Of a stretch of 64,000 nucleotides of DNA, positions 7,115 to 64,000 are shown piece after piece (positions within the stretch are counted from its first letter, which is position 1; the number at the start of each line of letters is the position of its first letter). A program made the translations under genes and the position numbers. The DNA is from Bacteroidota bacterium. GTDB taxonomy: Bacteria; Bacteroidota; Bacteroidia; UKL13-3. Location of the stretch: contig JAIYCU010000028.1 of the NCBI GenBank assembly GCA_027487835.1, positions 22,930-86,929 on the forward strand, in the 5' to 3' direction. The notes beneath the pieces were generated by a model. It ran no database searches and had not been told where the DNA came from. It saw only the letters and a program-made list of their open reading frames with translations.

Positions 7115-7239
7115 TTGCTTGGGTAGTGCTAAATAAATTGGTAAAAAGTGCTTCTAAAATAAAGTAGTAAAAATAGTTAATTTAAACCTAGAATAAGGAT
7201 TACTTTAATTATTAAACTATTAAGTTATTTCTAACAAAA

Positions 7240-7267
7240 AAGCCCGCCAACTTTCGTTGGCGGGCTT
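7240..7267. terminator. rho-independent terminator (agcccgccaac-tttc-gttggcgggct) flanked by A/T tracts
   Basis: 11-bp GC-rich stem with a 4-nt loop. T-tract on the minus strand, directly downstream of the 7285..13998(-) stop. Confidence 0.8.
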
Positions 7268-7284
7268 TAAAAAAATACTTAGAA

Positions 7285-37736: not shown

Positions 37737-38081
37737 TTACAATTCCCCTTTAAAAGCCTTGTCCAATAAACTTGGAATTAGTTTGGTTAATTCCTGTTCG
37801 GTTTGTTTGTGATGTTCTTTAACTGCATTTGTTTTATTGAGTAGTTCAACAAATTCTCTTTGCAATTCAATTGAAGGAACTGGAACTAATATTTTCATCA
37901 ACTTGTCTAAGCCCAATGTTTTGTTTCTTCCTATCACAATAATTTTTCCGTCAGTGAAAGTCCGCTGTTCAAGTATTAAATCGTCTGACCATTGGCTATC
38001 ATACAGCTTGGGCAACACTTCCTTTCGGCAAGTGTCCGCTTCGCTATCGTGATTGTCAATATGTATAGTTTTATCACTCAT
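37737..38081 (-). pseudogene. chimeric relic ORF: HsdR N-terminal domain fused to HsdS C-terminal conserved tail (type I R-M remnant)
   Basis: N-terminal SEADTCRKEVLPKLYDSQWSDDLILEQRTFTDGKIIVIGR matches HsdR_N (SEAxTRxxLIDPxLxxxGW...). C-terminal PVPSIELQREFVELLNKT...LIPSLLDKAFKGEL is the canonical HsdS C-terminus. Confidence 0.55.
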
Positions 38082-38145: not shown

Positions 38146-41100
38146 TTAAGTTGGTTGTTCATCCTCTATATTAATTTTTAGTACTATTGCAAATTGAGCA
38201 AAACTTGATGATAGGTTAGTTTTAGTTATGTTCCTATTTTTGTGATTTCTGAATTCATCTTCAACTTCTGCTGGTTCAAAATGTTCACCTAAGATAGTGG
38301 CTAAATAAATTGAAGTTAATTTGTCAAAATCATTAGTTGGCTTTTGGAAATTCAAATTAATTGTAGTTTTTAGTTTGTGAATTTTTGAGATTTCACTCTT
38401 TGGTATAGATGGAATCAAAATCTTACTCAAAGCCCATGAAGTAACTCGTTGCAAATTATAATCACCCGATTTAATCCATAATTTTGTCAAGTATATAACA
38501 TATTGTATCCTTAAACTATCTGGGAAAATATTTACTTCTCCTGACCAAGCAACACTCCAGCATATTGAGAAATGACAATGGGCATCATTTGTTTTGAGTA
38601 AGTCATACATAATTTTGAATATTTCCTCTGAAACTGAAATTTCTGAAATTCCTATTTCAAGTGGTCGAAATGATAAACCATACGCAAAGTTCATCATGCC
38701 TAATGCTGCTATACATTTATTTTCATTCGTTTCGCTTTTTAATGATAAAAGAATTTCATTTGGAATTGAAGATATATTTTCTGAATTCGCCAAGTCAGTA
38801 TAGAAAATGTCTGCTAAAGTTGACCCTAATGGGGACGAATATTTATCATCATATTTTCCAAAAAAACATTCTTTAACTCTTTTTCTAAATGCATTTCCAA
38901 ATTTATTTTTAAGAATAATATCTGTGTTTCCTCTTCCAAGGATTGTATAGATGTTTTTCGCATACCATTCAATTGCAGTGCCTAATAAGTCTGGACTAAT
39001 TTGAATTTCATTTGCAAGGCAGCTACCTAAAAGGGAGGGCGCAAGTTTATCTTCCTTTAGTTGTTCCTTTTTTTCTTTAGTGGCAATAATTTTTGATTCA
39101 GAAATTAAATATTCAATTAAGTCTTTTGTATCCCTTTCTAAAAGAACAGCAGCCAATGGTATTACCTCTTTCCAATTTTCATTATTTACATTTGGCTTAA
39201 TAATATCCACAACTTTACTTTCAATATCTGATAATGGAATAAACTTTTTTACTATCGCTTTCGCTGTCAAATACTCTTGGAAACTTAAATGCAAAAATTC
39301 ATATACCGCAGTTATGTTACCTGAATCAAGTTGTTTATGACCTGTCATTATTAGTAAGCTGCTTCTTGATTCAACCCTTTTTATAAATTCAGTGGGATTA
39401 ACATTTGTATAGCCTAAAATTTCTGGCATTTGTTTACGTGCATCAATGAGACAACCATTAAGTTCTTCTGAAGTAATCGTTTGTTGACCATTTTTAGTCA
39501 TCCAATATGCTACAAAAGCAAGTTGGGGTTCTGCTTCTTCAATGTCAAGAATTTCATGTCCTTCAACATTCCATGTCACTAAGAGAAGCTTAATCATTTC
39601 TTGATATAAAACACTTCTTTTAGTTGGAAGATACCCTGCCCATCTTTTAACAAAAAGTAGAGTAGTTAAGAGAAGTGGATTCTCGGCTAATACTACTATT
39701 CTATTGTCCTTTATAATTAAATCACTTAGCTTATTTGCTTCTTTAATTGTGTTTTCTGAGTCGTCTATAATTGCTTTGTGCCATTTTAAACACAGCTCTT
39801 CAATTTCCTCACCAATCAAATTTGAAACTGTATAGTTCTCACAATAAGTTGCTAATGAACCAGCTACAACTCTAAATCCCGCCTCTCGTGATGTTACTAT
39901 AATATTAATTGTAGGGTATGTTGCAATAAAGGTTCTCAGTTGGTTTACAAAGGCAATTCTATTCTTGTCTTCTGCAATTTCATCCAATCCGTCAATTAGT
40001 AACAACGCATTACCATTTTGCAATGACTTTGAAACTAAAATTGAAAAATCATCAGCGCAAGAATGAATTTCTGCTCTAGCAGGTATTCCGTTAATAATAT
40101 CAGTAATACTTAAAGTAACATTGTCCCCAAGTTCTCTACACCTTAAAAAAATTGGAAACCAATCTTTGTCAGGAAGTTTGTCATTTATTTGTATACGCCT
40201 TTCAGGGAAAGCATATGCAATTGCTATACGCTTAATAAGAGTTGATTTTCCGCCACCTGGCTTTGCAAGTATTGCAAGTTTTGATTTCTTTTCTAGGATT
40301 TCACCTATACCTTCTCTCGGTTTATCATCAAAATCAAATTCATCATTTATCCTTATTTGCAGTTTTTTACTCAAATGAAGAGGGACAAAAATATTTTCCA
40401 GCTTTACTTTAACCGAACCAGCTTCTTTATCAGTAGGTAATCCTTCAAATTGGATTTCACCTAATTCATTTTCTAAATACTTGAAATATTTTTCGCCTGT
40501 CTCTTTTAAGTTTCGTTTGGCTACTTTGGTTGTTTCCTCTTTGTTTAATAGGGTTAGTCCATCAAATAAATTTTTAATGTTATTGTCTATTAAAATTATC
40601 TCTTCTGCTAAATCTTTAATAAGAGGCTTTCCTTCCGCATGAACTAAAGCAACATGAGATGGTTTTTGTCCGTGCGAATCTGAATAATAAATTGCCCAAA
40701 CCCAACCTTTATCGTAAGCCAATAAATCGGCATAATCAAGCATATATAGCCCTGATATTAAATTAGATGAAGATGAAATTGCCTTCTCTATTGAGACTAA
40801 AACTCTTCCACGAATCAACTCCTCTACAATTTTTTCTGGCTTAATTAAAATTACTCTTTTATTGTCGGCTTCATTTTCTTGTTCAATTGCAGTTTCCTTA
40901 AAACCTGAAAGAGATATAAAATATCCTACAATGCTAATGCCTTTTGCCCCTTTTTCTTTTTTGCTTTTTCTTTTTTCGACATCAATAGCACCAACAAATT
41001 TGTTTATGTCCGCGCCACCTATTTTTTCTGAGTGAGCTTTACACTCAGCAATAGCTATTTTTTGTTCCGTTCTGTGATTTGAACTCAAATCTAATTCTCT

Positions 41101-41232
41101 GCCTGATTTGTGAATATTAAGCCTTGGTTCATCATATCCCAAAGTATGGAAAAGGTCAGACATCAATCGTCCAAAAAGATCACCTTTTTTGTTTGAATCA
41201 ATTTCTAAAATTTCAATGTTTCTAAGTTTCAT
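38146..41232 (-). CDS. NLR-like antiphage STAND protein: N-terminal Mrr-like PD-(D/E)xK nuclease, central NACHT NTPase, C-terminal helical-repeat sensor (bNACHT/Avs-like)
   Basis: N-terminal ELDL...AIAECK PD-(D/E)xK motif. Walker A AKPGGGKSTL. NACHT Walker B LLLIDGLDEI. NACHT-specific IIVTSRE. About 500-aa helical repeat C-terminus. Confidence 0.8.
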   Translation of the reverse strand: MKLRNIEILEIDSNKKGDLFGRLMSDLFHTLGYDEPRLNIHKSGRELDLSSNHRTEQKIAIAECKAHSEKIGGADINKFVGAIDVEKRKSKKEKGAKGISIVGYFISLSGFKETAIEQENEADNKRVILIKPEKIVEELIRGRVLVSIEKAISSSSNLISGLYMLDYADLLAYDKGWVWAIYYSDSHGQKPSHVALVHAEGKPLIKDLAEEIILIDNNIKNLFDGLTLLNKEETTKVAKRNLKETGEKYFKYLENELGEIQFEGLPTDKEAGSVKVKLENIFVPLHLSKKLQIRINDEFDFDDKPREGIGEILEKKSKLAILAKPGGGKSTLIKRIAIAYAFPERRIQINDKLPDKDWFPIFLRCRELGDNVTLSITDIINGIPARAEIHSCADDFSILVSKSLQNGNALLLIDGLDEIAEDKNRIAFVNQLRTFIATYPTINIIVTSREAGFRVVAGSLATYCENYTVSNLIGEEIEELCLKWHKAIIDDSENTIKEANKLSDLIIKDNRIVVLAENPLLLTTLLFVKRWAGYLPTKRSVLYQEMIKLLLVTWNVEGHEILDIEEAEPQLAFVAYWMTKNGQQTITSEELNGCLIDARKQMPEILGYTNVNPTEFIKRVESRSSLLIMTGHKQLDSGNITAVYEFLHLSFQEYLTAKAIVKKFIPLSDIESKVVDIIKPNVNNENWKEVIPLAAVLLERDTKDLIEYLISESKIIATKEKKEQLKEDKLAPSLLGSCLANEIQISPDLLGTAIEWYAKNIYTILGRGNTDIILKNKFGNAFRKRVKECFFGKYDDKYSSPLGSTLADIFYTDLANSENISSIPNEILLSLKSETNENKCIAALGMMNFAYGLSFRPLEIGISEISVSEEIFKIMYDLLKTNDAHCHFSICWSVAWSGEVNIFPDSLRIQYVIYLTKLWIKSGDYNLQRVTSWALSKILIPSIPKSEISKIHKLKTTINLNFQKPTNDFDKLTSIYLATILGEHFEPAEVEDEFRNHKNRNITKTNLSSSFAQFAIVLKINIEDEQPT

Positions 41233-41261: not shown

Positions 41262-41490
41262 AAGCTGTAATGCCGCAAATTTGTTTTCCATCAACTAATT
41301 TAATACATGCAACTCCAACTTATTTAACAAACTTACCCAATCCTTTACAAACAAAAAATACCCAAAAGTGGGTATATGAAAATATTCTAAATGAATAATG
41401 ACACATTGCACATAAAGTATTAATAACTTAAAACGAAAGATTCAATACACATTTCTACAAACCATTGCAGGTTCCGTTCAACTAGAATTT
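41262..41490 (-). promoter_or_regulatory. conserved promoter-bearing intergenic element, copy E, containing perfect palindrome ATACCCAAAAGTGGGTAT (41358..41375)
   Basis: gcaactccaacttatttaacaaacttacccaatcctttacaaacaaaaaatacccaaaagtgggtat...aaccattgcaggttccgtt, upstream of the NACHT gene start. Confidence 0.65.
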
Positions 41491-42063: not shown

Positions 42064-42440
42064 ACTTTGTTTTTTGCTTTAAAATTTGGGTATATAGAAT
42101 AACATTGTCATAATTTCAGAGTGTGAAAAACCTCATCAAACTTTTTAGTGTAAAAATATCAAAAAATGAATGATTAGGCAAGTATCTTGGTAGTTAAATT
42201 TGCATCAGCAAAACAATTATGGATAACATCAAAGTTAGTAATATCGATCAGATGGAGCTTTGTTGTAATTCTGGAGATACCTTTACACTTCTTCCATTTT
42301 TTTGTTTCTGGATAGACTCATATTTCACTCCAAAGCTTTTTACAAAGCCTATTAAAGTTTTGCCAGTTTGTTGGTTTTCTTAATGATTTTGAAATTTCCA
42401 TTATTAAATGCGAGGTGTCCCTAAAGGTTATAGCTTAACA

Positions 42441-42556
42441 ATTCGGAGGTTTGCGATGGCGGGGATTATTAGCACTAAACTTCATTCGGAGAACTGAATT
42501 TCCACCTTGCACAAAAGTGTCTGCGATGCACGGAACCCCGCCTATTGCAAATGTGC
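42441..42556. other. GC-rich structured element E2: 15-bp long-range stem (tttgcgatGGCGGGG ... CCCCGCCtattgcaa) enclosing about 70 nt, 3' of the RloC-like gene
   Basis: Local GC far above surroundings. Homologous (about 65-70% identity) to element E1 at 45075..45205. Stem base pairs covary with E1 (C:G vs T:A, G:C vs C:G). Shared inner motif GTGTCTGnGAnGCACnGAACC. Confidence 0.6.
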
Positions 42557-42604
42557 TGCTACAAGTTGGGCTTTTGTCTGTCTGAATATATGTTGTTTCA
42601 AATG

Positions 42605-44995
42605 TCATAATTGAACTTCAATTAAGTTAAGAGTGTCTTGTATTAGGTTGTCCAATTCAGGTTCAGTAATAGTATTAGGGTTAATACCTAACATTGTGTA
42701 ATCTGGAGTTGGGTCACCATGATGTGGTTTCCAGGAAACTCCATTAATTAAATGAAGTGTAGATATTATTGTTGTCCTGTTTGCATTGTCCCTAAATACA
42801 ACTGGCAATGTATCTAAAAATGTAATTAATCTTCCAAATGTTTGTATTCCTGTCATAGTTCGAACTTCCTTGTAGAATTTGAACCGTAAATGTGCTTCAA
42901 GAACATTTCTCAACCAACCTAAAACAGTGTCTTTAATTGCATGGTTTGGGTTACTTCTAAAAGCCTCCAATGCTTCAATATGTTTAAAGTATTCAATTTT
43001 TACCAATTCTTCTAAATCACATAGTTCAAGTTTAGATGCTTTGGCTACGAAATCTTCCTTTATACGAAGTGTGCATTTTAAGGTTGCTCCAATGTCTTTG
43101 CCTATTTCATGAAGAAAATATTCATTGTGGCTTAAAACAACCACCTGCTTTAGTTGTTGAAATAATGTTCTAATAATTCCAATTGTATAGGTTCTTCTAT
43201 TAGTATCTAAACTTGATAAAGGGTCATCAAAAATTAAAATTTTATCTTGGCGGTTTGGATCAATGTCAAGTTTGGATAAAAAGAACGCTAAAGCAATTGT
43301 GCTTTTATCTCCCTCGCTCAAACATTCCTTGGCATTAAATGGTTGATTTGGGACAAATGATATGTCCTTGCCGTCTATTGTCAATTTGTAAGCGATTTTG
43401 CTTTGTGTTGCTCTTCCTGCTGGAGCAACATGAACAACATCCTCTATTCTAAAAAGTGTCTTGAAAACATTGCCCAAATAATGGTTGATACGTGTCTGGT
43501 AGCTATTGAAAAAAGTTGCTGCTGTGGTTTGCTGTTGTTGCGATAAAGCTGTGTATGCTGTTTCTAAACCTCTAAGTGTTTGTTTCTCGGCAGACAATTG
43601 AGTGCAAAGCGTAACAATGGGAGTTTCATATCTCTTTTTAATTCTTTTTAGTCTATCAACCGCAAGCTGTGCATTTGCAGCAGTCTGAATACCTGCACGA
43701 AAAGTTGTAATTGCAGCATTGTAAGTTGTAATGCTTTGATTGTAGCTTTCAATGTTTGTGTTAATGGTCTGTCCAGAAGACAGAAAAACAGTAGCGGTGG
43801 CGGTAGCCACCGCTACTGTAGGATTTTGTATTTTTTGTTGGAGTGAATCAATTAACCTTTGAAACTCTGCTCTTAAAACAGTTTCGTCCGCAATGATGTT
43901 AAAAATTGGTGGATGAACTGTATTTGGCAAGTGCGTAGCCCATAACGTTACTCTCCCTGTATTTGTCTGATTGATATTGTTTATCGCTTGTATGGCAGCG
44001 TCCAAATTGAAGTTTTGAAGCGAAGTCAAATGTGATTGTAGTCGTAGAACTAAAGCGTTAAAGTCAGCATTAAATTTAGTGATATAGGCGTTTAGAATTT
44101 CAACATTGCCATCAATAGTCTGCATACAAAATGGACAAGAAATTGTGGGTTCATTTGCTGCTTGTTTTCTCTCCACATATGCAAATCCTCTTTGCAGCCA
44201 ATTTTCAGGTCCGTCAAGTCCGTTGTCTGTCAAGTCTTGACAATGATTTGAAAACAAAGTTTCCAAAGCTGCATTTTGAATTGCTTGTGATGTTGTCTGT
44301 AAGTCTGTGATAAGAGAAGTGAAATCAATACCCGATATTATTCGGGTGAGAGCAGTAAGTTGTTGTAATGTTTGAATTATTGTGTTTGCATTCGCACTCG
44401 CTAATGCAGCCTCCGCCGCTGTAATTTGTTGGTCAATTCCGCTAGATTGTGTTACAGGAATAGCAAGAAATGAAGTAATTAAGTCAGCGGTCAAACTGTT
44501 TCCCACTTGCTGAATTAATTGTTGTTCAATATTTGTTATTGATTGTTTTGATATGACTTTAGCAGCTTTGTTTTGTTCAATTTGATTTTGAATTGCAATT
44601 CCTTGTGCACCGATAACAAATTGATGAAGTTGCTTTTTATGTTCATCATTAAAGTCAAACCCTGAATAGATATTGTCGTTGACAAAATGAATGTCAAAAA
44701 TCTCAATATTATCAAAAGGAGTTGTCCAACCAGCAGCCCTTAAGGTGTGAAATGTATTCGGTGTCCCTGTTTGAGTTATTTGTGCTGCTTGTGCTGCTAT
44801 ATGGTTTGTAGAAATTCTACTTCTAACGATTTCAGGTTTGTTGGTTGTCAAGGAACGAAACACTGAAGTTAGTGTGGTTTTACCACCTCCATTGTTGCCA
44901 TAAATTAAGGTCAGCTTTTGAAAATTAATCTGTCCAGCAGCAGTGTAGTTGCGGAATTTTCCAATGGAAGTAAGTCGTTCAACTTTGTTTATCAT
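42605..44995 (-). CDS. RloC/PrrC-like anticodon-nuclease-type ABC ATPase (AAA_13-like): split ABC head with long coiled-coil insert, CxxC zinc-hook, C-terminal HEPN-like domain
   Basis: Walker A GNNGGGKTT at the N-terminus. About 450-aa Gln/Ala-rich coiled-coil with SCPFC. ABC signature LSEGDKSTIALAFFL, Walker B ILIFDDP, H-loop VLSHN. C-terminal roughly 190 aa carry an Rx5H match to the HEPN Rx4-6H motif (LRNVLEAH). Confidence 0.7.
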   Translation of the reverse strand: MINKVERLTSIGKFRNYTAAGQINFQKLTLIYGNNGGGKTTLTSVFRSLTTNKPEIVRSRISTNHIAAQAAQITQTGTPNTFHTLRAAGWTTPFDNIEIFDIHFVNDNIYSGFDFNDEHKKQLHQFVIGAQGIAIQNQIEQNKAAKVISKQSITNIEQQLIQQVGNSLTADLITSFLAIPVTQSSGIDQQITAAEAALASANANTIIQTLQQLTALTRIISGIDFTSLITDLQTTSQAIQNAALETLFSNHCQDLTDNGLDGPENWLQRGFAYVERKQAANEPTISCPFCMQTIDGNVEILNAYITKFNADFNALVLRLQSHLTSLQNFNLDAAIQAINNINQTNTGRVTLWATHLPNTVHPPIFNIIADETVLRAEFQRLIDSLQQKIQNPTVAVATATATVFLSSGQTINTNIESYNQSITTYNAAITTFRAGIQTAANAQLAVDRLKRIKKRYETPIVTLCTQLSAEKQTLRGLETAYTALSQQQQTTAATFFNSYQTRINHYLGNVFKTLFRIEDVVHVAPAGRATQSKIAYKLTIDGKDISFVPNQPFNAKECLSEGDKSTIALAFFLSKLDIDPNRQDKILIFDDPLSSLDTNRRTYTIGIIRTLFQQLKQVVVLSHNEYFLHEIGKDIGATLKCTLRIKEDFVAKASKLELCDLEELVKIEYFKHIEALEAFRSNPNHAIKDTVLGWLRNVLEAHLRFKFYKEVRTMTGIQTFGRLITFLDTLPVVFRDNANRTTIISTLHLINGVSWKPHHGDPTPDYTMLGINPNTITEPELDNLIQDTLNLIEVQL

Positions 44996-45074
44996 GCTTG
45001 AAAGGTGTTCTTGTCAATTGTTTGTATTATGCAGTCAGCTTCATGTTAGCACGGTCGTCATAGCCTTGCTGGTA

Positions 45075-45205
45075 AAGTTTTCGGGCTTGGCGAAGGTGGC
45101 GATTTTCACCACAAATGTTGATGCGGAGAACCAAACTTTGATTAACCTCAAATGTGTCTGTGAAGCACTGAACCGCCACTTTTGCCAAACCCGTGTTATG
45201 TGCAG
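45075..45205. other. GC-rich structured element E1 (homolog of E2): long-range stem ttggcgaaGGTGGCG ... CGCCACttttgccaa, between the SIR2 and RloC-like genes
   Basis: Direct-orientation homolog of E2. 15-bp stem with two G·T wobbles. Compensatory changes relative to E2. Covers the spurious 62-aa ORF 45027..45215. Confidence 0.6.
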
Positions 45206-45211
45206 TATTTT

Positions 45212-46393
45212 TCACTTTATAAATTCAGATTTTTCAAGATTTGGATAAGTCTCAATGAATTCCTCAAACGTGCCTTTAAAGGTTTCAAGTTGACCAATTT
45301 GCTTTTGGGAGAAAATTTGATTTACTTTTTCCCAATGAGCATCTGATGATGTTGGGTCTACTACTTTGATTATAGGTTTATTTCTATTCCAATTTAAAGC
45401 ATGTTGTAATAAATTTAAAAATGCTAGGTCTGATTGAGGAAATGAATATCCGATTATAATAATTTCTTGTGCTTCAATTAGTGATTTGAATGTTCCATCC
45501 CAAAGTTCTTTAGCTGTAGAATTTTCGTTCTTACCTAAAATTGGGGCAACTAAATCATGTTCAAGTTTTGCTCCACAAATGCCACATTTAAATCGGTCAA
45601 ATAAATTTCTTATTTCTTCTGTACTATGTTTGTCATCGTAATACATTGAGTAACTATTCACAATTTTGTAGTTATGGATAGTCTTACAGTTTGGACATTT
45701 AAACCAATCAAACGACCCATGTAATTTAATCAATTCATGGTGTTTACTGTAAGTCCATTTATATTGTTCATTACGGATTAAATGAGCTCCGTCACTAAAT
45801 GTATAGATTGGTACTATATAATGTGGCACAACATTAAAATTGCTTTCTACGCCAACTACACCCCAGATGTGGTCAAAATATTCGTCATCAAGTTTACAGT
45901 CATAGTTAAATGATATAGTACTTAATACCGGTATGTTATTGTCGTTAATTGTTTTGAACCATAGTCTATCAAAGAAATTTTTGTATAATTCTTTTGAGTT
46001 GTCTAAAAAAATTGTGTTATCAATGAATTTAGAAGTTTTGTTGTCAATGGCAGAAAAGATAATTTTTGTAAGCGTTTTAAATACTTTAGTTAAAGTGTCT
46101 TGGTTCAGAAGATAATTGTCAACATGAATTATAGAATTGTTTCGTATAAAATAATCAAGTTGTCCCAAGAGATTTTCATAATCAATCCACTCTTTTTCCA
46201 AGTCTTTTCCTTGCAATTCCAAAACAATTGATTTTACTATTGTAAATACTTCCTTAAAATGACTTGATTTACATTCCTTGATAAATTCAATTATAGATGT
46301 TGGAAGCTGATTAAGAGTTGGAATTCCATAAGCAAAAGAAGCTCCTGCCCCGAAGACACAAGCTGTTCTCTTTATATTTTTATGGTCTGTCAT
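45212..46393 (-). CDS. SIR2-like (SIR2_2/DSR-type) defense-associated protein with C-terminal Cys-rich zinc-ribbon
   Basis: N-terminal ACVFGAGASFAYGIP matches the SIR2_2 hallmark (hFhGAGhS..GhP). C-terminal CPNCK...CGICG. Defense-island context. Confidence 0.65.
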   Translation of the reverse strand: MTDHKNIKRTACVFGAGASFAYGIPTLNQLPTSIIEFIKECKSSHFKEVFTIVKSIVLELQGKDLEKEWIDYENLLGQLDYFIRNNSIIHVDNYLLNQDTLTKVFKTLTKIIFSAIDNKTSKFIDNTIFLDNSKELYKNFFDRLWFKTINDNNIPVLSTISFNYDCKLDDEYFDHIWGVVGVESNFNVVPHYIVPIYTFSDGAHLIRNEQYKWTYSKHHELIKLHGSFDWFKCPNCKTIHNYKIVNSYSMYYDDKHSTEEIRNLFDRFKCGICGAKLEHDLVAPILGKNENSTAKELWDGTFKSLIEAQEIIIIGYSFPQSDLAFLNLLQHALNWNRNKPIIKVVDPTSSDAHWEKVNQIFSQKQIGQLETFKGTFEEFIETYPNLEKSEFIK

Positions 46394-46417: not shown

Positions 46418-46500
46418 TAAACGCACTAATGCACCCAATATCAAACAAACATACCCAATCCTTTTTAATCAAAAAATACCCAAAAGTGGGTATATTTAAA
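46418..46500 (-). promoter_or_regulatory. conserved promoter-bearing intergenic element, copy F, containing palindrome ATACCCAAAAGTGGGTAT (46476..46493)
   Basis: caaacatacccaatcctttttaatcaaaaaatacccaaaagtgggtat is near-identical to copy E. On the coding strand it carries the TTTTTTG / TATGTTTG (-33/-7-like) boxes just upstream of the SIR2 gene. Confidence 0.65.
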
Positions 46501-47918: not shown

Positions 47919-48054
47919 TTAGTTCTAACATTTTATTATAGTAGGGATAAGTGGGAAAATAATGGCTTCCTACTTATCCCTTTTTTTGGCACGATCCCAA
48001 AAAGTGTTTTGATAATCTGATAAATGTTTTAACTTCCCCGACAAATATTATGGC

Positions 48055-48285
48055 CTATCCGACAAAGGTTTTGACCTCCCCGTTAAGTGCTTTTGCCTCC
48101 CTGACAAATGTTTTTACTTGCCCGACAAATGTTTTGACCTCCCCGATAAGTGCTTTTGCCTCCCCGACAAATGTTTTTACTCGCCCGATAAATACTTTTG
48201 CCTCCCCGACAAATGTTTTTACTCGCCCGACAAATGTTTTGACCTCCCCGACAAAAGTTTTTGCCTCCCCGTTACTTCTGAAAAC
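48055..48285. repeat. minisatellite: about 11 tandem copies of a 21-bp unit (consensus CCCGACAAATGTTTTGACCTC with TTTTACTCG / TTTGCCTC variants)
   Basis: Direct tandem repeats visible by eye. Both overlapping ORFs (48050..48415+, 48055..48309-) only translate the repeat into heptad-like repeats. Confidence 0.85.
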
Positions 48286-48514
48286 CTTGACTAAGTATCC
48301 AAATTCCAATGCATCAGTAAATCCGTTTTATCTGATAAACATATTTTTCATGCGCCACTTGAATGAGGCCATAAACAATATTTCTATAAAAAAACAAATA
48401 CAAGACCATAATTAATATGACTTAATCCTATAAGTAGGATTTACCTTTATCAATAGGTAGATTTTTCTTTTATAGTATCTCTTAAGTATTTACGATTGTA
48501 TAAAAAATTAAACC

Positions 48515-57309: not shown

Positions 57310-57588
57310 GGCCTTGATTTAAGGGCTTACTATAAATAGTCGCACCTAAAAAGCCACTTACATAGAAATTTTATCCTCTAAAATAAGCAAGCAATTCCCA
57401 TTTTGGGGTTAATAGCTGCCTTTTTCCCTTTTTAATACACACATTGCGACAATTAATACAGCAACTCAAATAAATTTATATCTATTGGTATAAAATTTAA
57501 GGCAATTAAACATTTTAGTTGAAGACTTAATGGGATAAAAAATAGCTTCACATATTATTAATGTAGTCCGTTCTACCTAAATTAATCT

Positions 57589-60500
57589 ATGAAACACGTT
57601 TACAAGCAAATGAAATTCGTATTAGGTTTATCCTTATTCGCATTATTCTGTTTAGTTGGAATCAATGCCAATGGGCAAACTGCCTCTGTCACCTTGGGAA
57701 GCAACCCCGCGTGTCTGGGAGTAAGCAATGCAATTGAAATTACCTATTCTGGGTTAAGCACAGGTGATGAATATGCCGTGAAATGGGGAGCCACAACGGT
57801 AGGTACTATTACCGCGCCGCATTCAGGATCAGGCACTGTTAACCTAAACACCAATAGTTTAGTTTCAACTTCCCCAACTGGGTTCGAGTTTGAAAATCAA
57901 ACAACACCTGGCATTGATGCTACAGCAAGTTTTACCTTAAATGACTTGCCAGCTGCACCTGGTTTTGATTCAGATTATTCTGGAATTTATGACGGGACCT
58001 TTCATACGGGAGTGGTAACAGTTAATGTAGGAGAATCAGTGGTTTGGTATACCGCTTCTAGCGGTGGTAGTGAAACCGATGGTTTAAAAGCAGCAGGAAC
58101 TGCTACTTTTTATGCAGCGGCAAAAATAGATGCAACAGGTTGTTTTAGTAGTTCAAGAACTTCTGCGGATGTTGCAATAGGTGCAAAAACATTAACGGTA
58201 AATGTAACAGCACAAAATAAAGAATATGATGGAAACGATGCTGCAGCCTTAAGTTCAGCTTCATTTTCAGGCGCACTTGGCGGTGATGATGTAAACATCG
58301 GTGGAACAGTAACCGCTAACTTTAATGATAAAACAGTTGATAATGGCAAAGCAGTATCTTTATCTGGTGTTTATACCAAATCTGGCACAGATGCTGGAAA
58401 TTACAGCATTACCCAACCAAGTGGCTTAACGGCTGATATCACTCCAAAAGAATTAACGGTAAATGTTTCAGTTAGTGATAAAGAATATGACGGCAATGAT
58501 GTGGCAACCTTAGGTTCTGCTTCATTTATTGGGGTTGTAGGCGCAGATGATGTAAACATAGGTGGAACAGTAACGGCTAACTTTAATAATAAAACAGTTT
58601 CTTTTGGCAAACCAGTTTCTTTTAATGGTACTTATACAAAATCTGGTACAGATGCTGGTAACTATTACATTACGCAACCTAGTGGTGCTATAGCTAATGT
58701 TAATTACAAGGCATTAACGGTTAATGTATCTGCAAATAACAAAGAATATGATGGAAATGATGTTGCAACTTTAAGTTCGGCATCATTTGTTGGCGTTATA
58801 GGTGGCGATGATGTAACACTTGGTGGAACAGTTACGGCTAACTTTCTTGATAAAACAGTTGATAATGGCAAAGCAGTTGACTTAAATGGTGCTTATACTA
58901 AATCTGGAACAGATGCTGGAAATTACAACCTTACACAACCGAGTGGGTTAACGGCTGATATTACTCCAAAAGAATTAACGGTAAATGTTACCGCTAATAA
59001 TAAAGAATACGATGGAAATGATGGCGCAACTTTAGGTTCTGCTTCTTTTGTTGGTGTTGTAGGTGGTGATGATGTTACAATTGGGGGAACAGTTACTGCT
59101 AACTTTAATAACAAAACGGTTAATAATGGCAAGGCAGTTTCTTTATCTGGTGTTTATACCAAATCTGGAACTGATGCAGATAATTACAGCATAACTCAAC
59201 CAACAGGCTTAACTGCTAATGTTACCGCCAAAGAATTAACAGTAAGTGTAACCGCTAATAGCAAAGAATATGATGGCAATGATGGCGCAACTTTAGGTTC
59301 TGCTTCTTTTGTTGGCGTTGTAGGTGGTGATGATGTTACAATTGGGGGGACAGTAACTGCTAACTTTAATAACAAAACAGTTAATAATGGCAAGGCAGTT
59401 TCTTTATCTGGATTTTATACCAAATCTGGAACTGATGCTGGAAATTACAGCATTACCCAACCAACAGGTTTAACAGCAAATGTTACCGCCAAAGAATTAA
59501 CAGTAAGTGTTACTGCTAATAACAAAGAATATGATGGCAATGATGTGGCAACTTTAAGTTCAGCCTCTTTTGTTGGCGTTGTGGGCGGTGATGATGTTAC
59601 AATTGGTGGAACAGTGACGGCTAACTTTAATAACAAAACGGTTAATAATGGCAAGGCAGTTTCTTTATCTGGAGTTTATACCAAATCTGGTGCAGATGCT
59701 GGAAATTACAGCATTACCCAACCAAGTGGTTTAACCGCAAATGTTACAGCTAAAAATTTAAACATAAGTGTTACGGCCCAAAACAAAATATTTGATGGAA
59801 ACGATGAAGCTACTTTAAATTCAGCAAGCTTCAGTAATTTGATTTCTGGAGATGATGTAACCCTTGGTGGCACCGTAACTGCTAATTTTAACAATATTAA
59901 TGTTGGTAATACAAAGCCTGTTTCTCTTACAGGAACTTATACAAAATCAGGACCTGATGCTGGTAATTATAACTTAATTCAGCCAAGTGGTTTAACAGCA
60001 AACATTACACACCAACCAATAACTATTACGGCCCTTAACCAAGCTAAATGCCAAGGTACAGGCGTTACTTTAAATGGAACAGAGTTTAGCATTTCAGGTA
60101 TTATTTCTCCTGATGAAGTAACTTCGGTTACCTTAACTACGAGTGGTGCATCAAGCGGAGCGGCTGCAAGTTCTACGCAATATGCCATTGTTCCAAGTGC
60201 TGCTGTAGGTTCAGGATTATCTAATTATAGTATCAGTTATGTAAATGGTGGATTCTTAGTAAGATCTAATCCTACTGCTAGTTTCTCATTTAATGACAAT
60301 ACACAATGCTTTGTTGGACATGGGTTCAACCTAAGCAATACTTCTTCTAATGGAAGCACAACTGGTTCTGGCACAATTAACGCTTGGAGCTGGACCGCAA
60401 CAGGTTCTAGCAATGCAGCCTTTACAGGTGTTGGTCCACATGGCCCATTAACCTATGCTAGTCATGGCGATTATACTATTAACTTAAGCGTTACTGACCA

Positions 60501-63500
60501 ACATGGTTGTACCAATAGCACTAACTTTACTAATAATGTAAGGGTTTACCAACACCCAACCGCTTCTTTTACTACAGCTGAAACCAGCGGTACTGCAAAC
60601 AATGATTATAATATTTGTACTGGAGCAACCGTAACTTTTAATGGTTCTGGTTCTAGCTTTGGTTTTGGCGCAAGCAGTTTACTTTACCAATGGAGAAAAG
60701 ACAATGTTGACCAAGTTGGGTCAGGCGCAACTTCTTCAATCTATACTCCAGCTGTAAACGCAGTGAGCAACCCAGATGCCATTACTTACACTTTAAGAGT
60801 AACTGACAACAATGGTTGTACAAGCAATGCTTTTGCAACAGAGCCTTCTCAAGTAATAAATGTTTATCCTTTTGCTAACCCAAGTTTAACAACTCCTGAT
60901 ATGGGCGCTCAAGGTTCTTATGGAACAACTTCTTTAAATGGAAATGGTGGTCAATTAATTTGTAATGGAGCCGCTATTTTTAGTGGATCAGCAACTATTC
61001 CTTCAGGTTCTGTAGTATCATATATATTTAACTACGGAGATGGAAGTTTATTAGAAGCGGTTACTGACCCAAGTTTAATGAAGCATACCTTCCCTACTGT
61101 AACAAATGTGCCATGGGGAACCCCAGGAGAGCCAAATGTGAGGTATAGCATTCAAATGACTGCGGTTACAAACCAAGGTTGTTCTACTAGCACAACTATT
61201 TCAAGAGATATTAAGACAGGCCCTGATGCAAGTGTTGGCTTAACAGATGCCGCCACTCAAAACTTGACTGGCAATAGCTTTGAGTTTTTATTTGGCAATG
61301 TTGATAGACATCCATCTTATAAAATAACCAACTTATGGGATTTTGGAGATGGCACTACCACTACCGCCTCTTATTTAAACATCACGCCAAAAATTTATAC
61401 GGCAGCAGGAAACTATCGCGCCCATTTGATCATTTACACCAATACAGGTTGTACAGATACTGCGCATTATGATGTAACTGTAACGCCAGCAGCCGCAGCA
61501 TCTTTTAGCGTAACGCCTAATAGCTGTGCAAACAGAAATGTTGCATTTAACAGTGGAGCGAGTGTAGGTGCAATTTCTTATGCATGGAATTTTGGAGATG
61601 GAAATACTTCTACCCTAGCCAATCCAACACATACTTATGCTGCAGATGGCAGTTTTACTGCAACTTTAACCATTAATGGCGGTGTATCAACTACCAACCA
61701 AAGTGTTACGGTAATTACCAACCCAATTGCAGGAACAATTAGTTCAAATCTAAATTCTTGCACCAATGAATATACATTTAGCAGCAATGCCACAGGTTCA
61801 AACCTTAGCTATGCATGGAGCCTTGCAGGCGGATCAGGCGCTGCTTCTACCACTTCAAGCATCCAAAGAAGTTACAGCACAAGTGCAACAGCTACCGTTG
61901 ATTTAACGGTAACAGCAAATGGCGCTTGTTCTACATTGGTAAGTCAATTATCATTTACACCAGAAGTTGCCATACCAGGCCCAGATGCTGGTGTTTCTGC
62001 AACATTGGTTAGTGCTTGTTCTACCTCAGTAACCATAACTAATTCATCAGTTAATGCAGATACTTACGAGGTAAAAGTTGATGCGGGTGCGTATGCATCG
62101 CAAACTACATTTCCATATAATATAGACTATTTAACGCCAGGGGTACATACAATTTATCTTAAAGCAAGTGCCTCAGGTTTGTGTCCAGATGAAACATCAG
62201 TGAATGTTACCATCGCGCCTGCACTTGCAGGATTTGATGCAACACCTCCAGCTTGTGGCAAAACAATAAGTTTTACAAATACATCGAGCATTAGTTATGG
62301 CACAGCAACCTATAATTGGAATTTTAATTCAGGCGAAGGAACCTCAACCAGCACCAACCCAGATTTTACCTTTGCAACAGGAGGAAGTAAACCTGTTACT
62401 TTGACTGTAACAACAGTATCTGGATGTACAATTGGCGTTACGGGTGGCGTAAATGTGAGTACATTAGTTGGACCAACTGCAAGCTATAGCCATTCTGCAG
62501 CAACAGGATGTGGAAATGGAAAACAGTTTACGAATACCACAATTGGTTCAGGATTAACTTTCAATTGGAATTTTGGAGATAATACCAATACCAACGTAGA
62601 AAACCCTATTAAATATTTTGCAAGTAGCGGCAATCACCAAGTTATCTTAACTGTATCTGACGGGGTTTGTTCGAACAGCAGCACCCAAACTATTAGCATT
62701 TCACCTTTTAGCGGCAATGCAGCCTCTTTTGAAGAAGGAAACGGTAGTTATACGCAAGCTTTAAGTGGAAATAATTTCTACTTTGAGAATACCACTACCC
62801 ATACTGCAAATGGCGGTTGGACCCCTAGCTACTCATGGAATTTTGGCGATGCAACCACTAGCACCAACACCCATGTATTTAATAAAACATATGCGGCAGC
62901 AGGAACTTATACCATCACACTAACAGCCACATCAAGTTTAGGTTGTTCAACAACTTTCACTAGAAACGTTACAATTACTGCTTCAAATACTGCAAATTTC
63001 AGTTATACGCCTAATGCCTGTGGAAGTTTAGATATTGCTTTCAACAGTTCAGCCTCTATTGGTGCAACTGCTTACAGCTGGAATTTTGGAGATGGAAACT
63101 CATCTACCTTGGCAAACCCAACACATACTTATGCGGCTGCAGGTACTTATGCAGTAATATTGACCATCAATGGAAGTGTGGTTTCTACACCTCAGTCGGT
63201 TATTGTAACAACTGCTCCTACTGGAGTATCAATTACACCTGCTTCAAATGCTTGTACCTCTACCTATTCTTATACCGCAGCGGCTACAGGAAGCAACTTA
63301 ACTTACCATTGGAGTTTTACGAATGTAGATGGAGGTTCGCTTTCAAGTACTTCGGCGGTGGTTAACAAAAGTTATACTGCATCGGGTACAGAAAATGCAA
63401 CGCTAACAGTATCTTCTGGTGCTTGCTCTACTTCGGTTACATTAAGTGGCTATTCAGTTTCGGTAGCAGGGGCATTAGTGACTGCTAACTTAACAGTATC

Positions 63501-64000
63501 GGCTGCAGATGCATGTTCAGGTGTTAGAACCTTAAACAATACGGGCAGCACTGCAGTTTCTTATCAAGTTAGGATAGATAATGGATCATTTACAAATCAA
63601 ACTACCTTCCCTTACGACATTACTGGACTAAGCGCTGGTCAGCATAGGATTGCTTTAAAATCAATTAATGGCAGTTGCGAAGATATTGATGAAGATACAA
63701 TTGAGGTTGGAAGTGTAACAGCAGGATTTACCCCAACACCAAGTACTTGTAACAAAAGTGTATCTTTCTTAAACACTACTGTTGCTTCTTATGGTGCACC
63801 AACTTATGCTTGGACCTTTACAGGAGCAAGCCCAAGTAGCAGTACAAGTACCAACCCTAGCACTACTTATACAAGTTCTGGCATCAACAGTGCAAGCTTA
63901 GTGGCAACCTTAAGTAATGGATGTTCTTCAACAAGTACTAATGCAACCATTAATGTTTCAAGTGGTACTGGCCCAGTGCCATCGTTTTCAAGTAGTTTCA
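57589..64000 (+). CDS. giant surface adhesin (partial, runs off the window): signal peptide, 7 tandem about 87-aa MBG/YDG-type repeats, then more than 10 PKD-like domains with a 1.4-kb higher-order duplication
   Basis: Translated manually in frame 1 from ATG 57589 (alternative ATG 57610) with no stop before 64000. Repeats KELTVNV.A.NKEYDGND.ATL.SASF.GV.GGDDV.IGGTVTANFN.KTV.NGKAVSLSG.YTKSGTDAGNY.ITQP.GLTA. PKD signatures WNFGDG..S...NPTH.Y. Confidence 0.85.
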   Translation, partial: MKHVYKQMKFVLGLSLFALFCLVGINANGQTASVTLGSNPACLGVSNAIEITYSGLSTGDEYAVKWGATTVGTITAPHSGSGTVNLNTNSLVSTSPTGFEFENQTTPGIDATASFTLNDLPAAPGFDSDYSGIYDGTFHTGVVTVNVGESVVWYTASSGGSETDGLKAAGTATFYAAAKIDATGCFSSSRTSADVAIGAKTLTVNVTAQNKEYDGNDAAALSSASFSGALGGDDVNIGGTVTANFNDKTVDNGKAVSLSGVYTKSGTDAGNYSITQPSGLTADITPKELTVNVSVSDKEYDGNDVATLGSASFIGVVGADDVNIGGTVTANFNNKTVSFGKPVSFNGTYTKSGTDAGNYYITQPSGAIANVNYKALTVNVSANNKEYDGNDVATLSSASFVGVIGGDDVTLGGTVTANFLDKTVDNGKAVDLNGAYTKSGTDAGNYNLTQPSGLTADITPKELTVNVTANNKEYDGNDGATLGSASFVGVVGGDDVTIGGTVTANFNNKTVNNGKAVSLSGVYTKSGTDADNYSITQPTGLTANVTAKELTVSVTANSKEYDGNDGATLGSASFVGVVGGDDVTIGGTVTANFNNKTVNNGKAVSLSGFYTKSGTDAGNYSITQPTGLTANVTAKELTVSVTANNKEYDGNDVATLSSASFVGVVGGDDVTIGGTVTANFNNKTVNNGKAVSLSGVYTKSGADAGNYSITQPSGLTANVTAKNLNISVTAQNKIFDGNDEATLNSASFSNLISGDDVTLGGTVTANFNNINVGNTKPVSLTGTYTKSGPDAGNYNLIQPSGLTANITHQPITITALNQAKCQGTGVTLNGTEFSISGIISPDEVTSVTLTTSGASSGAAASSTQYAIVPSAAVGSGLSNYSISYVNGGFLVRSNPTASFSFNDNTQCFVGHGFNLSNTSSNGSTTGSGTINAWSWTATGSSNAAFTGVGPHGPLTYASHGDYTINLSVTDQHGCTNSTNFTNNVRVYQHPTASFTTAETSGTANNDYNICTGATVTFNGSGSSFGFGASSLLYQWRKDNVDQVGSGATSSIYTPAVNAVSNPDAITYTLRVTDNNGCTSNAFATEPSQVINVYPFANPSLTTPDMGAQGSYGTTSLNGNGGQLICNGAAIFSGSATIPSGSVVSYIFNYGDGSLLEAVTDPSLMKHTFPTVTNVPWGTPGEPNVRYSIQMTAVTNQGCSTSTTISRDIKTGPDASVGLTDAATQNLTGNSFEFLFGNVDRHPSYKITNLWDFGDGTTTTASYLNITPKIYTAAGNYRAHLIIYTNTGCTDTAHYDVTVTPAAAASFSVTPNSCANRNVAFNSGASVGAISYAWNFGDGNTSTLANPTHTYAADGSFTATLTINGGVSTTNQSVTVITNPIAGTISSNLNSCTNEYTFSSNATGSNLSYAWSLAGGSGAASTTSSIQRSYSTSATATVDLTVTANGACSTLVSQLSFTPEVAIPGPDAGVSATLVSACSTSVTITNSSVNADTYEVKVDAGAYASQTTFPYNIDYLTPGVHTIYLKASASGLCPDETSVNVTIAPALAGFDATPPACGKTISFTNTSSISYGTATYNWNFNSGEGTSTSTNPDFTFATGGSKPVTLTVTTVSGCTIGVTGGVNVSTLVGPTASYSHSAATGCGNGKQFTNTTIGSGLTFNWNFGDNTNTNVENPIKYFASSGNHQVILTVSDGVCSNSSTQTISISPFSGNAASFEEGNGSYTQALSGNNFYFENTTTHTANGGWTPSYSWNFGDATTSTNTHVFNKTYAAAGTYTITLTATSSLGCSTTFTRNVTITASNTANFSYTPNACGSLDIAFNSSASIGATAYSWNFGDGNSSTLANPTHTYAAAGTYAVILTINGSVVSTPQSVIVTTAPTGVSITPASNACTSTYSYTAAATGSNLTYHWSFTNVDGGSLSSTSAVVNKSYTASGTENATLTVSSGACSTSVTLSGYSVSVAGALVTANLTVSAADACSGVRTLNNTGSTAVSYQVRIDNGSFTNQTTFPYDITGLSAGQHRIALKSINGSCEDIDEDTIEVGSVTAGFTPTPSTCNKSVSFLNTTVASYGAPTYAWTFTGASPSSSTSTNPSTTYTSSGINSASLVATLSNGCSSTSTNATINVSSGTGPVPSFSSSF

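Follow-up and report, generated by a model that had tools for sequence, protein, structure and literature searches.

Do a SIR2-like gene and a gene for an RloC-like ABC ATPase that lie side by side form one defence system, or are they two that merely share a neighbourhood? The question is raised by a 64-kb stretch of DNA from a Bacteroidota bacterium of the UKL13-3 lineage (assembly GCA_027487835.1, contig JAIYCU010000028.1), referred to here in its whole length as the window. Both open reading frames (ORFs) are on the minus strand and are separated by a gap of 216 nt that holds a structured element, E1. The two ORFs, with their sizes and positions, and the intervening element had been reported from an inspection of the letters alone (the sequence-only reading), and all of these were confirmed. 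The analysis presented here makes it probable that the locus consists of two independent single-gene defence modules, with the RloC-like gene being a widely spread, integron-like mobile cassette. A recombination site lies between the SIR2-like and RloC-like genes and explains their adjacency, which is a coincidence of neighbouring cassettes. The features of the locus are as follows.

45212..46393, minus strand: SIR2-like gene, an ORF of 393 aa with a guanine-plus-cytosine (GC) content of 0.303.
45066..45207, minus strand: E1a, an attC-like imperfect palindrome identified by its fold z-score, covariance-model matches and covariation (GC 0.46).
44996..45075, minus strand: leader of the RloC-like cassette, identified by side-by-side comparison of upstream sequences and by blastn.
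42605..44995, minus strand: RloC-like ABC ATPase, a predicted anticodon nuclease, an ORF of 796 aa (GC 0.361).
42429..42570, minus strand: E1b, a second attC-like site identified by covariance-model matches and 69% identical to E1a.

However striking, two adjacent genes in a defence island make a system only if the pair recurs. Homologues of the ATPase form more than 120 clusters at 74–92% identity over the full length and are found in many lineages, including Bacteroidota, Chlorobiales, Spirochaetia, Bdellovibrionota and, as a 74%-identical copy, an Arcobacter plasmid. A total of 29 genome loci of these homologues together with the Arcobacter plasmid (L035) provided 30 loci for comparison. 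A tblastn search with the window SIR2 protein returned zero matches in the 29 genome loci, and a Pfam analysis of 28 upstream and 24 downstream neighbours, the plasmid included, identified no SIR2 of any kind. These neighbours (integrases, restriction enzymes, ArdA, DUF4365, HD-CE, DUF3800, a reverse transcriptase and others) did not cluster with each other. From the SIR2 side, no AAA_13 protein was located beside a homologue in any of four independent contexts. The sequence-only reading had treated the SIR2-RloC juxtaposition as a meaningful combination; since it recurs in 0 of 30 ATPase loci and 0 of 4 SIR2 contexts, that view is not supported within these samples.

By the sequence criteria tested, the 796-aa protein belongs to the RloC family, although the Glu-to-His spacing of its triad is just outside the published range. 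RloC is an anticodon nuclease whose wobble-nucleotide-excising tRNase activity is controlled by a DNA-dependent ATPase. RloC proteins have been defined by a length of 658–897 aa, ABC motifs, and a coiled-coil insert at whose centre lies a CX2C zinc hook (PMC2610378; PMC3458546), and their catalytic triad is a C-terminal Arg-X3-Glu-X36-52-His in which a Ser often precedes the His (PMC2610378). The motifs noted in the sequence-only reading are all present in the window protein: Walker A, GNNGGGKT (residues 33–40, nt 44876–44899); the CxxC hook, CPFC (287–290, nt 44126–44137); the ABC signature, LSEGDKS (559–565); Walker B, ILIFDDP (586–592); and the H-loop, LSHN (621–624). The last three are nearly invariant in the subfamily alignment (A4), and a single CxxC occurs at positions 263–294 in 20 of 20 full-length subfamily members. 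The Pfam profile AAA_13, which had been proposed as a check, was matched at 3e-44, and SMC_N and ABC_tran match as well. Positions 7–212 of the SMC_N profile are spread across residues 11–638, indicating a Rad50/SMC-type head interrupted by a long insert. A, T, Q, I and L are abundant in the insert and Pro and Gly are few; from the split head and this composition, the insert is predicted to be a coiled-coil. A phmmer search of the protein against PDB sequences matched only Rad50/RecF heads.

Assignment to RloC itself comes from three sources. The best PADLOC model is PDC-S06 (5.3e-70, residues 1–714), with LmuB as a secondary match (4e-17); the same proteins are termed RloC in DefenseFinder and PDC-S06 in PADLOC (supplement of PMC11811056). 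Homologues with 90% identity are named ‘wobble nucleotide-excising tRNase’ (COG4694) in IMG. The residues K39, C287, D591, R696, E700 and H758 are collinear with K44, C291, D572, R692, E696 and H737 of Geobacillus kaustophilus RloC (PMC2610378; PMC3458546). The RloC architecture proposed at the outset is supported.

The C-terminal domain required closer definition. When its 167 aa were searched by phmmer against 1.84 billion representatives, 41 clusters (50% identity) were obtained in which the domain is always C-terminal in proteins of ~770–806 aa or their fragments; neither PrrC nor any other architecture was reached. An alignment was made from 26 members of this set that are 25–59% identical in the domain. 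Five residues, R696, E700, S754, H758 and H759, are invariant in all 26 (R696-x3-E700, nt 42896–42910; S754...H758-H759, nt 42719–42736). The sequence-only reading had pointed to an Rx5H HEPN-like motif within RNVLEAH (696–702). The arginine of this motif is conserved; its histidine, H702, is present in 9 of the 26 members, with N (6), F (5), A (3), Y (2) or T (1) otherwise, and is the wrong histidine. No conserved Arg is found 4–6 residues before H758 among the 26 members. From these conserved residues, the pattern of the domain is R-x3-E-x53-S-x3-HH, not a conserved Rx4-6H.

A model of the C-terminal domain was all-alpha with high confidence (pLDDT = 91.4). In a Foldseek search of the PDB, HEPN proteins made up the sole coherent class of matches, with 1wol leading (prob 0.90, TMt 0.59) and 2q00, 1wwp, 1ufb, 3o10, 2hsb, 8xeh and 8xdj following (TMt 0.4–0.59). 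None of these was significant, as nothing was returned at E ≤ 0.001 and the best E was ~0.5. On the HEPN similarity claimed earlier, these matches are ambiguous; the model is only suggestive of a HEPN fold, which is plausible.

With this domain in mind, the alternative that survives best is an RloC-like ATPase whose C-terminal domain is some other RNase or DNase, or a regulatory or binding domain. The narrow distribution of the domain, without a phmmer link to PrrC-sized proteins, the unconserved HEPN Rx4-6H motif and the insignificant fold matches would all suit this alternative. In addition, the Glu-to-His spacing is 57, slightly beyond the published 36–52, the PADLOC PrrC model matches the ABC part alone (residues 543–712, 4e-8), and the comparison with G. 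kaustophilus RloC was made by published positions; each of these counts against an anticodon nuclease. In its favor, the invariant R-x3-E and S...HH are ordered and placed nearly as in the triad validated by mutation in G. kaustophilus RloC, the alignments to the AAA_13 and PDC-S06 profiles extend to residue 714–718 and so span R696 and E700, and no fold class competes with HEPN. The alternative is considered unlikely, and tRNase activity of the 796-aa protein is predicted by analogy to RloC.

Two further observations concern this gene. A perfect palindrome with a 14-bp stem (43788–43819) encodes a palindromic peptide, TVAVATATATV, in the second arm of the predicted coiled-coil. Also, the RloC-like homologues at L029:6001-8365, L030:6001-8399 and L032:6001-8396 are each split into two or three ORFs; these are probably pseudogenes, as would be expected for a toxic abortive-infection gene.

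The boundary between the two genes may be considered in terms of E1a and its counterpart E1b. The fold of the 216-nt spacer is a long stem (z = -2.6), and Rfam scans of the window and of the spacer matched no family. E1a begins 5 nt past the SIR2 stop codon and has an outer stem of ~19 bp, an R'' box of CATAAC and an R' box of TTTACC (45076–45071) in which the conserved GTT is mutated to TTT. E1b begins 35 nt past the RloC-like stop codon in the same orientation as E1a. Its R'' box is TGTAGC, where AAC is mutated to AGC (TAGC for TAAC), its R' box is GTTAAG, and the G at 42439 is the predicted 3' end of the cassette. Covariance-model matches to E1a scored 138 and 120 bits, and E1b was matched as well.

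Similar sites were identified elsewhere. With the covariance models, 11 loci were found to have a site directly past the stop codon of the ATPase homologue (L007, L008, L009, L016, L017, L018, L019, L022, L028, L029 and L030) and five to have one directly upstream of it (L016, L019, L020, L028 and L030). Arrays of sites are present in L028 (7 sites), L030 (6), L019, L008 and L029. The E1-type sites are always on the strand of the ORFs, and each begins a few to ~50 nt past a stop codon. Their ends are inverted boxes, ...CCGGTAAC and GTTACCGG..., with TAAC/GTTA kept in ~16 of 18 copies. In an alignment of 20 copies, 83% of the stem cells pair and double compensatory changes are seen in 18 of 19 stem pairs; the covariation score of 0.58 compares with 0.175 for shuffles and ≤0.12 for slid controls.

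The homology between loci ends at the same place. When the 216-nt spacer was searched by blastn, only its 3' 80 nt matched sequences upstream of homologues. Among the 30 loci compared, ~15 other loci are homologous to the window exactly from GTTACCGGCAAGG... onward and unrelated upstream of it; that is, the sequences preceding the ATPase gene are unrelated until GTTA, from which a common leader, GTTACCGGCAAGGCTATGACGAC..., begins. The (G)TTACC core is thus the 5' boundary of the cassette. Sites of the attC type are marked by a variable sequence, a conserved structure and AAC/GTT triplets, and the boundary of an integron cassette is at G|TT (PMC4889954). Taken together, the structure, the triplets, the occurrence of one site per ORF and the break in homology at GTT identify E1a and E1b as attC-like sites and the core as a cassette boundary.

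Two metagenome contigs from Logan (L036 and L037, position 1-41) encode the identical RloC-like protein, and both begin within E1a, at 111 nt before its ATG. The cause may be either an assembly break at a repeat or strain variation at a cassette junction.

A different account of E1 dispenses with recombination and takes the element as a structured RNA, acting as a regulator or antitoxin of the ATPase, or as a flanking repeat of the miniature inverted-repeat transposable element or repetitive extragenic palindromic type. This account would fit the stable RNA fold, the presence of the element on both sides of a toxin-like gene, the lack of an associated canonical IntI, and R boxes that deviate from the RYYYAAC/GTTRRRY consensus. 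The recombination reading has its own weak points here, as the alignment used for covariation was fitted to the model and so favours the structure, and the associated recombinase, described below, is without the IntI-specific insert. The sites, however, form regular arrays in which they follow numerous unrelated ORFs and share the orientation of those ORFs without exception. The GTTA core is the exact point at which homology between loci is lost, variable sequence is combined with conserved structure and triplets as in attC (PMC4889954), arrays recur beside one family of tyrosine recombinases, and the ATPase gene is also found where the element is missing, as on the Arcobacter plasmid. An RNA or simple repeat is thus very unlikely. 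In a separate consideration, E1 as a retron-like non-coding RNA or a type III antitoxin was rejected, there being no reverse transcriptase and the sites following many unrelated ORFs.

Within the 64 kb, only the two E1 sites are detectable even with filters off, and each has one mutated core triplet. A tblastn search of the window with the recombinase of locus L019 gave zero matches, and no Phage_integrase domain was identified among the 27 window ORFs scanned. A cluster of attC sites without an integron integrase has been termed a CALIN in the IntegronFinder definition of Cury et al. 2016. With two sites within 4 kb and no integrase, the window fits this definition. From the two sites, the mutated triplets and the missing recombinase, the window apparently retains a decayed, two-site cluster that resembles a CALIN.

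Complete forms of the platform, consisting of a recombinase followed by an array of co-oriented cassettes, are found in other genomes. In L019 (Mariniphaga sediminis), the array begins ~850 nt past a 374-aa tyrosine recombinase on the same strand (recombinase, 3818–4942; sites, 5793–5934, 8421–8562 and 9636–9775). The recombinase scored 220.7 bits against the NCBIfam model ‘site-specific tyrosine recombinase/integron integrase’, which is at the threshold of 220, and 211 bits against the TIGR02249 integron integrase, which is under the cut-off of 265. It aligned with VchIntIA (2a3v) only over residues 11–180 and 236–307. From this gap, the L019 recombinase lacks the IntI-specific segment and has an Xer-like length with a 100-aa N-terminal extension. 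In L034, a truncated homologue of the recombinase is immediately before the GTTACC boundary. A further 24 metagenome loci of recombinase homologues were collected, of which ~10 had at least 1.5 kb of downstream sequence; in 8 of these ~10, the recombinase is followed on its own strand by one to four sites spaced by ORFs. An initial covariance model made from 6 copies proved too narrow, identifying 3 arrays near recombinase homologues against 8 by the second model. The array loci are L042, L043, L045, L047, L053, L056, L060 and L063, with one or two ORFs between sites, and the recombinase-array platform was found mostly in Bacteroidota and metagenomes.

Defence genes in integron cassettes have already been documented (Darracq et al. 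2024, Kieffer et al. 2024/25; bioRxiv 10.1101/2024.07.02.601719, 10.1101/2024.07.02.601686), and neither RloC nor SIR2 is mentioned in the main texts of these two preprints. Integrons have been described as rare or absent in Bacteroidota (PMC9024848). It is tentatively suggested that the attC-like sites and the Xer-like recombinase make up an undescribed integron-like platform that shuttles defence genes, including the remarkably conserved RloC-type gene, between phyla. It is equally speculative that such a platform could be common in Bacteroidota and neighbouring phyla, which have been regarded as nearly integron-free.

The SIR2-like gene provides the other half of the pair. It is predicted to encode a catalytically intact enzyme of the sirtuin fold that consumes nicotinamide adenine dinucleotide (NAD+). 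The SIR2_2-type assignment of the sequence-only reading was correct in its GAGAS motif and SIR2 fold and was not supported by the Pfam SIR2_2 profile, which scored below its gathering cut-off (20.1 versus 24.5 bits), as did the Pfam SIR2 profile. For this reason, the assignment rests on matches to PADLOC SIR2 models, the best being Aga_SIR2 (5e-12), and on the fold. A phmmer search against PDB sequences returned zero matches. The AlphaFold (AF2) model (pLDDT = 78) was searched against the PDB, with 35 matches at E ≤ 1e-3, every one a SIR2 protein. The best was the SIR2 of E. coli SIR2-HerA (8uae; E 6e-11, TM 0.55), followed by SPARSA, ThsA, DSR2 and sirtuins. The motifs comprise GAGAS (residues 15–19, nt 46337–46351), N163/D165 (nt 45899–45907) and H225-G-S (H225, nt 45719–45721). 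Among 18 homologous sequences, G15, A16, G17, S19, N163, D165 and H225-G-S are invariant or nearly so, with G17, S19, N163, D165 and H225 being invariant. The zinc ribbon that had been placed at the C-terminus is misplaced: C233xxC...C270xxC (residues 233–273, nt 45575–45697) is an internal module, as in sirtuins.

Close homologues of this SIR2 number 7 in 5.8 billion proteins, and their neighbours are unrelated to one another. One homologue (P0002) follows GmrSD_N and HNH genes in a conjugative element, in the same neighbourhood on L001 and L002; others stand alone beside a tRNA fragment, before an unrelated 476-aa protein, or before a GmrSD_N protein. GmrSD_N was considered as a conserved SIR2 partner and rejected: it is near two homologues, but the arrangements differ and there is no mutual similarity. 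The closest metagenomic homologue (L003:8001-9178, 71% identity) is frameshifted near its 3' end, and an apparent 3' half of a tRNA gene lies beside it (L003:9390-9440), which suggests a genomic island that targets tRNA genes. As to whether the SIR2-like gene is a cassette in its own right, this status is favoured by the 5 nt between its stop codon and E1a, together with a GTTATTTGCAA motif at 20 nt upstream of the ATG, and is disfavoured by the homologues elsewhere, which are not trailed by E1-type sites.

With both proteins described, it can be asked how the pair would operate as a single two-gene system in the manner of SIR2-HerA/Nezha or Lamassu-Sir2, with the ATPase sensing infection and activating both its own nuclease and the SIR2 NADase. 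The genes are on the same strand with a 216-nt gap, the secondary match of the ATPase is to LmuB, and pairing with sirtuin effectors is known for ABC ATPases such as LmuB (bioRxiv 10.1101/2024.01.29.577857). Three points count against independence of the modules. The closest structural likeness of the SIR2 protein, the SIR2 of SIR2-HerA, needs an ATPase partner. The gap holds no terminator-like hairpin with a U-tract, making co-transcription and some coupling possible. The SIR2 side of the comparison is small, as five homologues were looked up, with P0002 on two contigs, giving the four contexts. The two genes may well be co-transcribed, as cassettes usually are, which is not evidence of functional coupling. 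Given that the pairing is absent from the 30 ATPase loci and the four SIR2 contexts, that an attC-like boundary separates the genes, that the ATPase has its own effector domain and is solitary everywhere else, that the two differ in GC content (0.303 for SIR2 versus 0.361) and phyletic spread, that the RloC/PDC-S06 profile is far better than LmuB (5e-70 versus 4e-17), and that neither LmuC nor HerA is among the window neighbours of the pair, a joint system is very unlikely.

For two independent modules, a working scheme may be drawn by analogy with G. kaustophilus RloC (PMC2610378, PMC3458546). The zinc-hooked, Rad50-like region would sense DNA ends or damage during infection. ATP hydrolysis would then switch on the all-alpha C-terminal nuclease domain, with its residues R696, E700 and H758/H759, and cleavage of tRNA anticodon loops would halt translation and lead to abortive infection. 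The SIR2-like enzyme would consume or hydrolyse NAD+. It is plausible that the two proteins are abortive-infection effectors that sit side by side in a defence islet. The RloC-like gene, its ~80-nt leader and the downstream site together form the mobile gene cassette, which elsewhere sits in arrays of alternating ORFs and sites beside an Xer-like tyrosine recombinase.

The pair is bracketed by two copies of a 62-nt direct repeat.

46439..46500, minus strand: copy 1 of the repeat, between an M15 peptidase gene and SIR2, with a terminator hairpin.
41321..41382, minus strand: copy 2 of the repeat, 87% identical, downstream of ORF158.

These are the only two copies in the window, and they enclose a 5.1-kb segment with SIR2, E1a, the RloC-like gene, E1b and ORF158. 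Both contain the same intrinsic-terminator hairpin, ATACCCACTTTTGGGTAT followed by a T-run, and terminator-like hairpins are confined to these positions, before SIR2 and after ORF158. An insertion scar and a recombination substrate are candidate origins of the repeats. A sigma-70 promoter scan performed no better than shuffles, such a scan being unsuited to Bacteroidota, and no tRNA genes were found in the window.

The small defence islet around the pair also holds an Mrr-NACHT protein and a type I restriction-modification (R-M) remnant. The former, just downstream of the cassette pair (38146–41232, minus strand), is a STAND-type defence candidate of 1028 aa that combines an Mrr_cat restriction-endonuclease domain at the N-terminus with a NACHT NTPase. 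The latter is a 114-aa ORF (37737–38081, minus strand) that corresponds at its N-terminus to the beginning of a type I restriction R subunit (EcoAI family) and at its C-terminus to the end of a type I specificity subunit; it appears to be what a deletion left of an hsd locus and is no functional R-M system. Further away, the ORFs on both strands at 48050–48415 are built of a repeated PTNVFT/SP-rich unit, reflecting a tandem DNA repeat of ~30–33 nt. The last 6.7 kb of the window (57310–64000) has zero complete ORFs of at least 120 aa listed and zero Rfam matches; this is probably one very large ORF that continues past the window end, comparable to the ORFs of 1777 and 2237 aa at 1781–13998.

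From this study, a conserved and widely transferred Bacteroidota gene can be assigned to the RloC anticodon-nuclease family, and the residues of interest are R696, E700 and the H758/H759 pair rather than H702. The gene adds one more member to a known kind, and the greater interest lies in the by-product, the cassette platform. If an Xer-driven integron analogue does exist in Bacteroidota, it would provide defence genes with a new reservoir and vehicle, and would explain why few integrons have been reported in this phylum, because standard finders require IntI.

Compared to known systems, the window SIR2 shares the sirtuin fold, GAGxS and the catalytic N/D and H residues with the SIR2 proteins of SIR2-HerA (Nezha), ThsA, DSR2 and SPARSA. 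In the PDB it is matched best by 8uae and 8sub (E 6e-11 to 1e-9), at a sequence identity of 12–16%. It differs in having no HerA, TIR/SLOG, pAgo or long sensor domain, in keeping the sirtuin CxxC...CxxC zinc module, and in belonging to a very small family (the 7 close homologues) with no conserved neighbour. In SIR2-HerA and Lamassu-Sir2, a partner (HerA, or LmuB with LmuC) is obligatory beside SIR2, which is not the arrangement seen here.

The ATPase is closest to the RloC of G. kaustophilus and Acinetobacter (Davidov & Kaufmann 2008, Klaiman et al. 2012). Its 796 aa fall within the published 658–897, ABC motifs are combined with a Rad50-like insert carrying a central CX2C at the same relative position (C287 versus C291), the C-terminal Arg-X3-Glu...His is at near-equal coordinates (R696/E700 versus R692/E696), and the gene is stand-alone. 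Unlike published RloC, the His is 57 residues after the Glu in an invariant HH doublet, with a conserved Ser at four residues upstream, the subfamily delimited by the C-terminal domain is narrow, and the gene is carried as an integron-like cassette. E. coli PrrC also has an ABC ATPase N-domain, a C-terminal nuclease with an R-x3-E...H triad, and abortive infection by tRNA cleavage; it differs in being ~400 aa without a coiled-coil or zinc hook and in lying within a type Ic R-M system that silences it.

Finally, the platform differs from integrons in its R boxes ((C)CGGTAAC / GTTACCGG versus RYYYAAC / GTTRRRY), in an Xer-like recombinase that lacks the ~55-residue IntI-specific segment and has the 100-aa N-terminal extension, and in the hosts of its arrays, which are mainly Bacteroidota. 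A complete integron is defined by an IntI with its additional domain, and the associated recombinase falls outside this definition. The resemblance to integron attC sites and CALINs is nevertheless extensive: imperfect palindromes of ~140 nt with AAC/GTT triplets and a variable centre, one site per ORF in the same orientation, a G|TT boundary, and arrays that lie beside a tyrosine recombinase.

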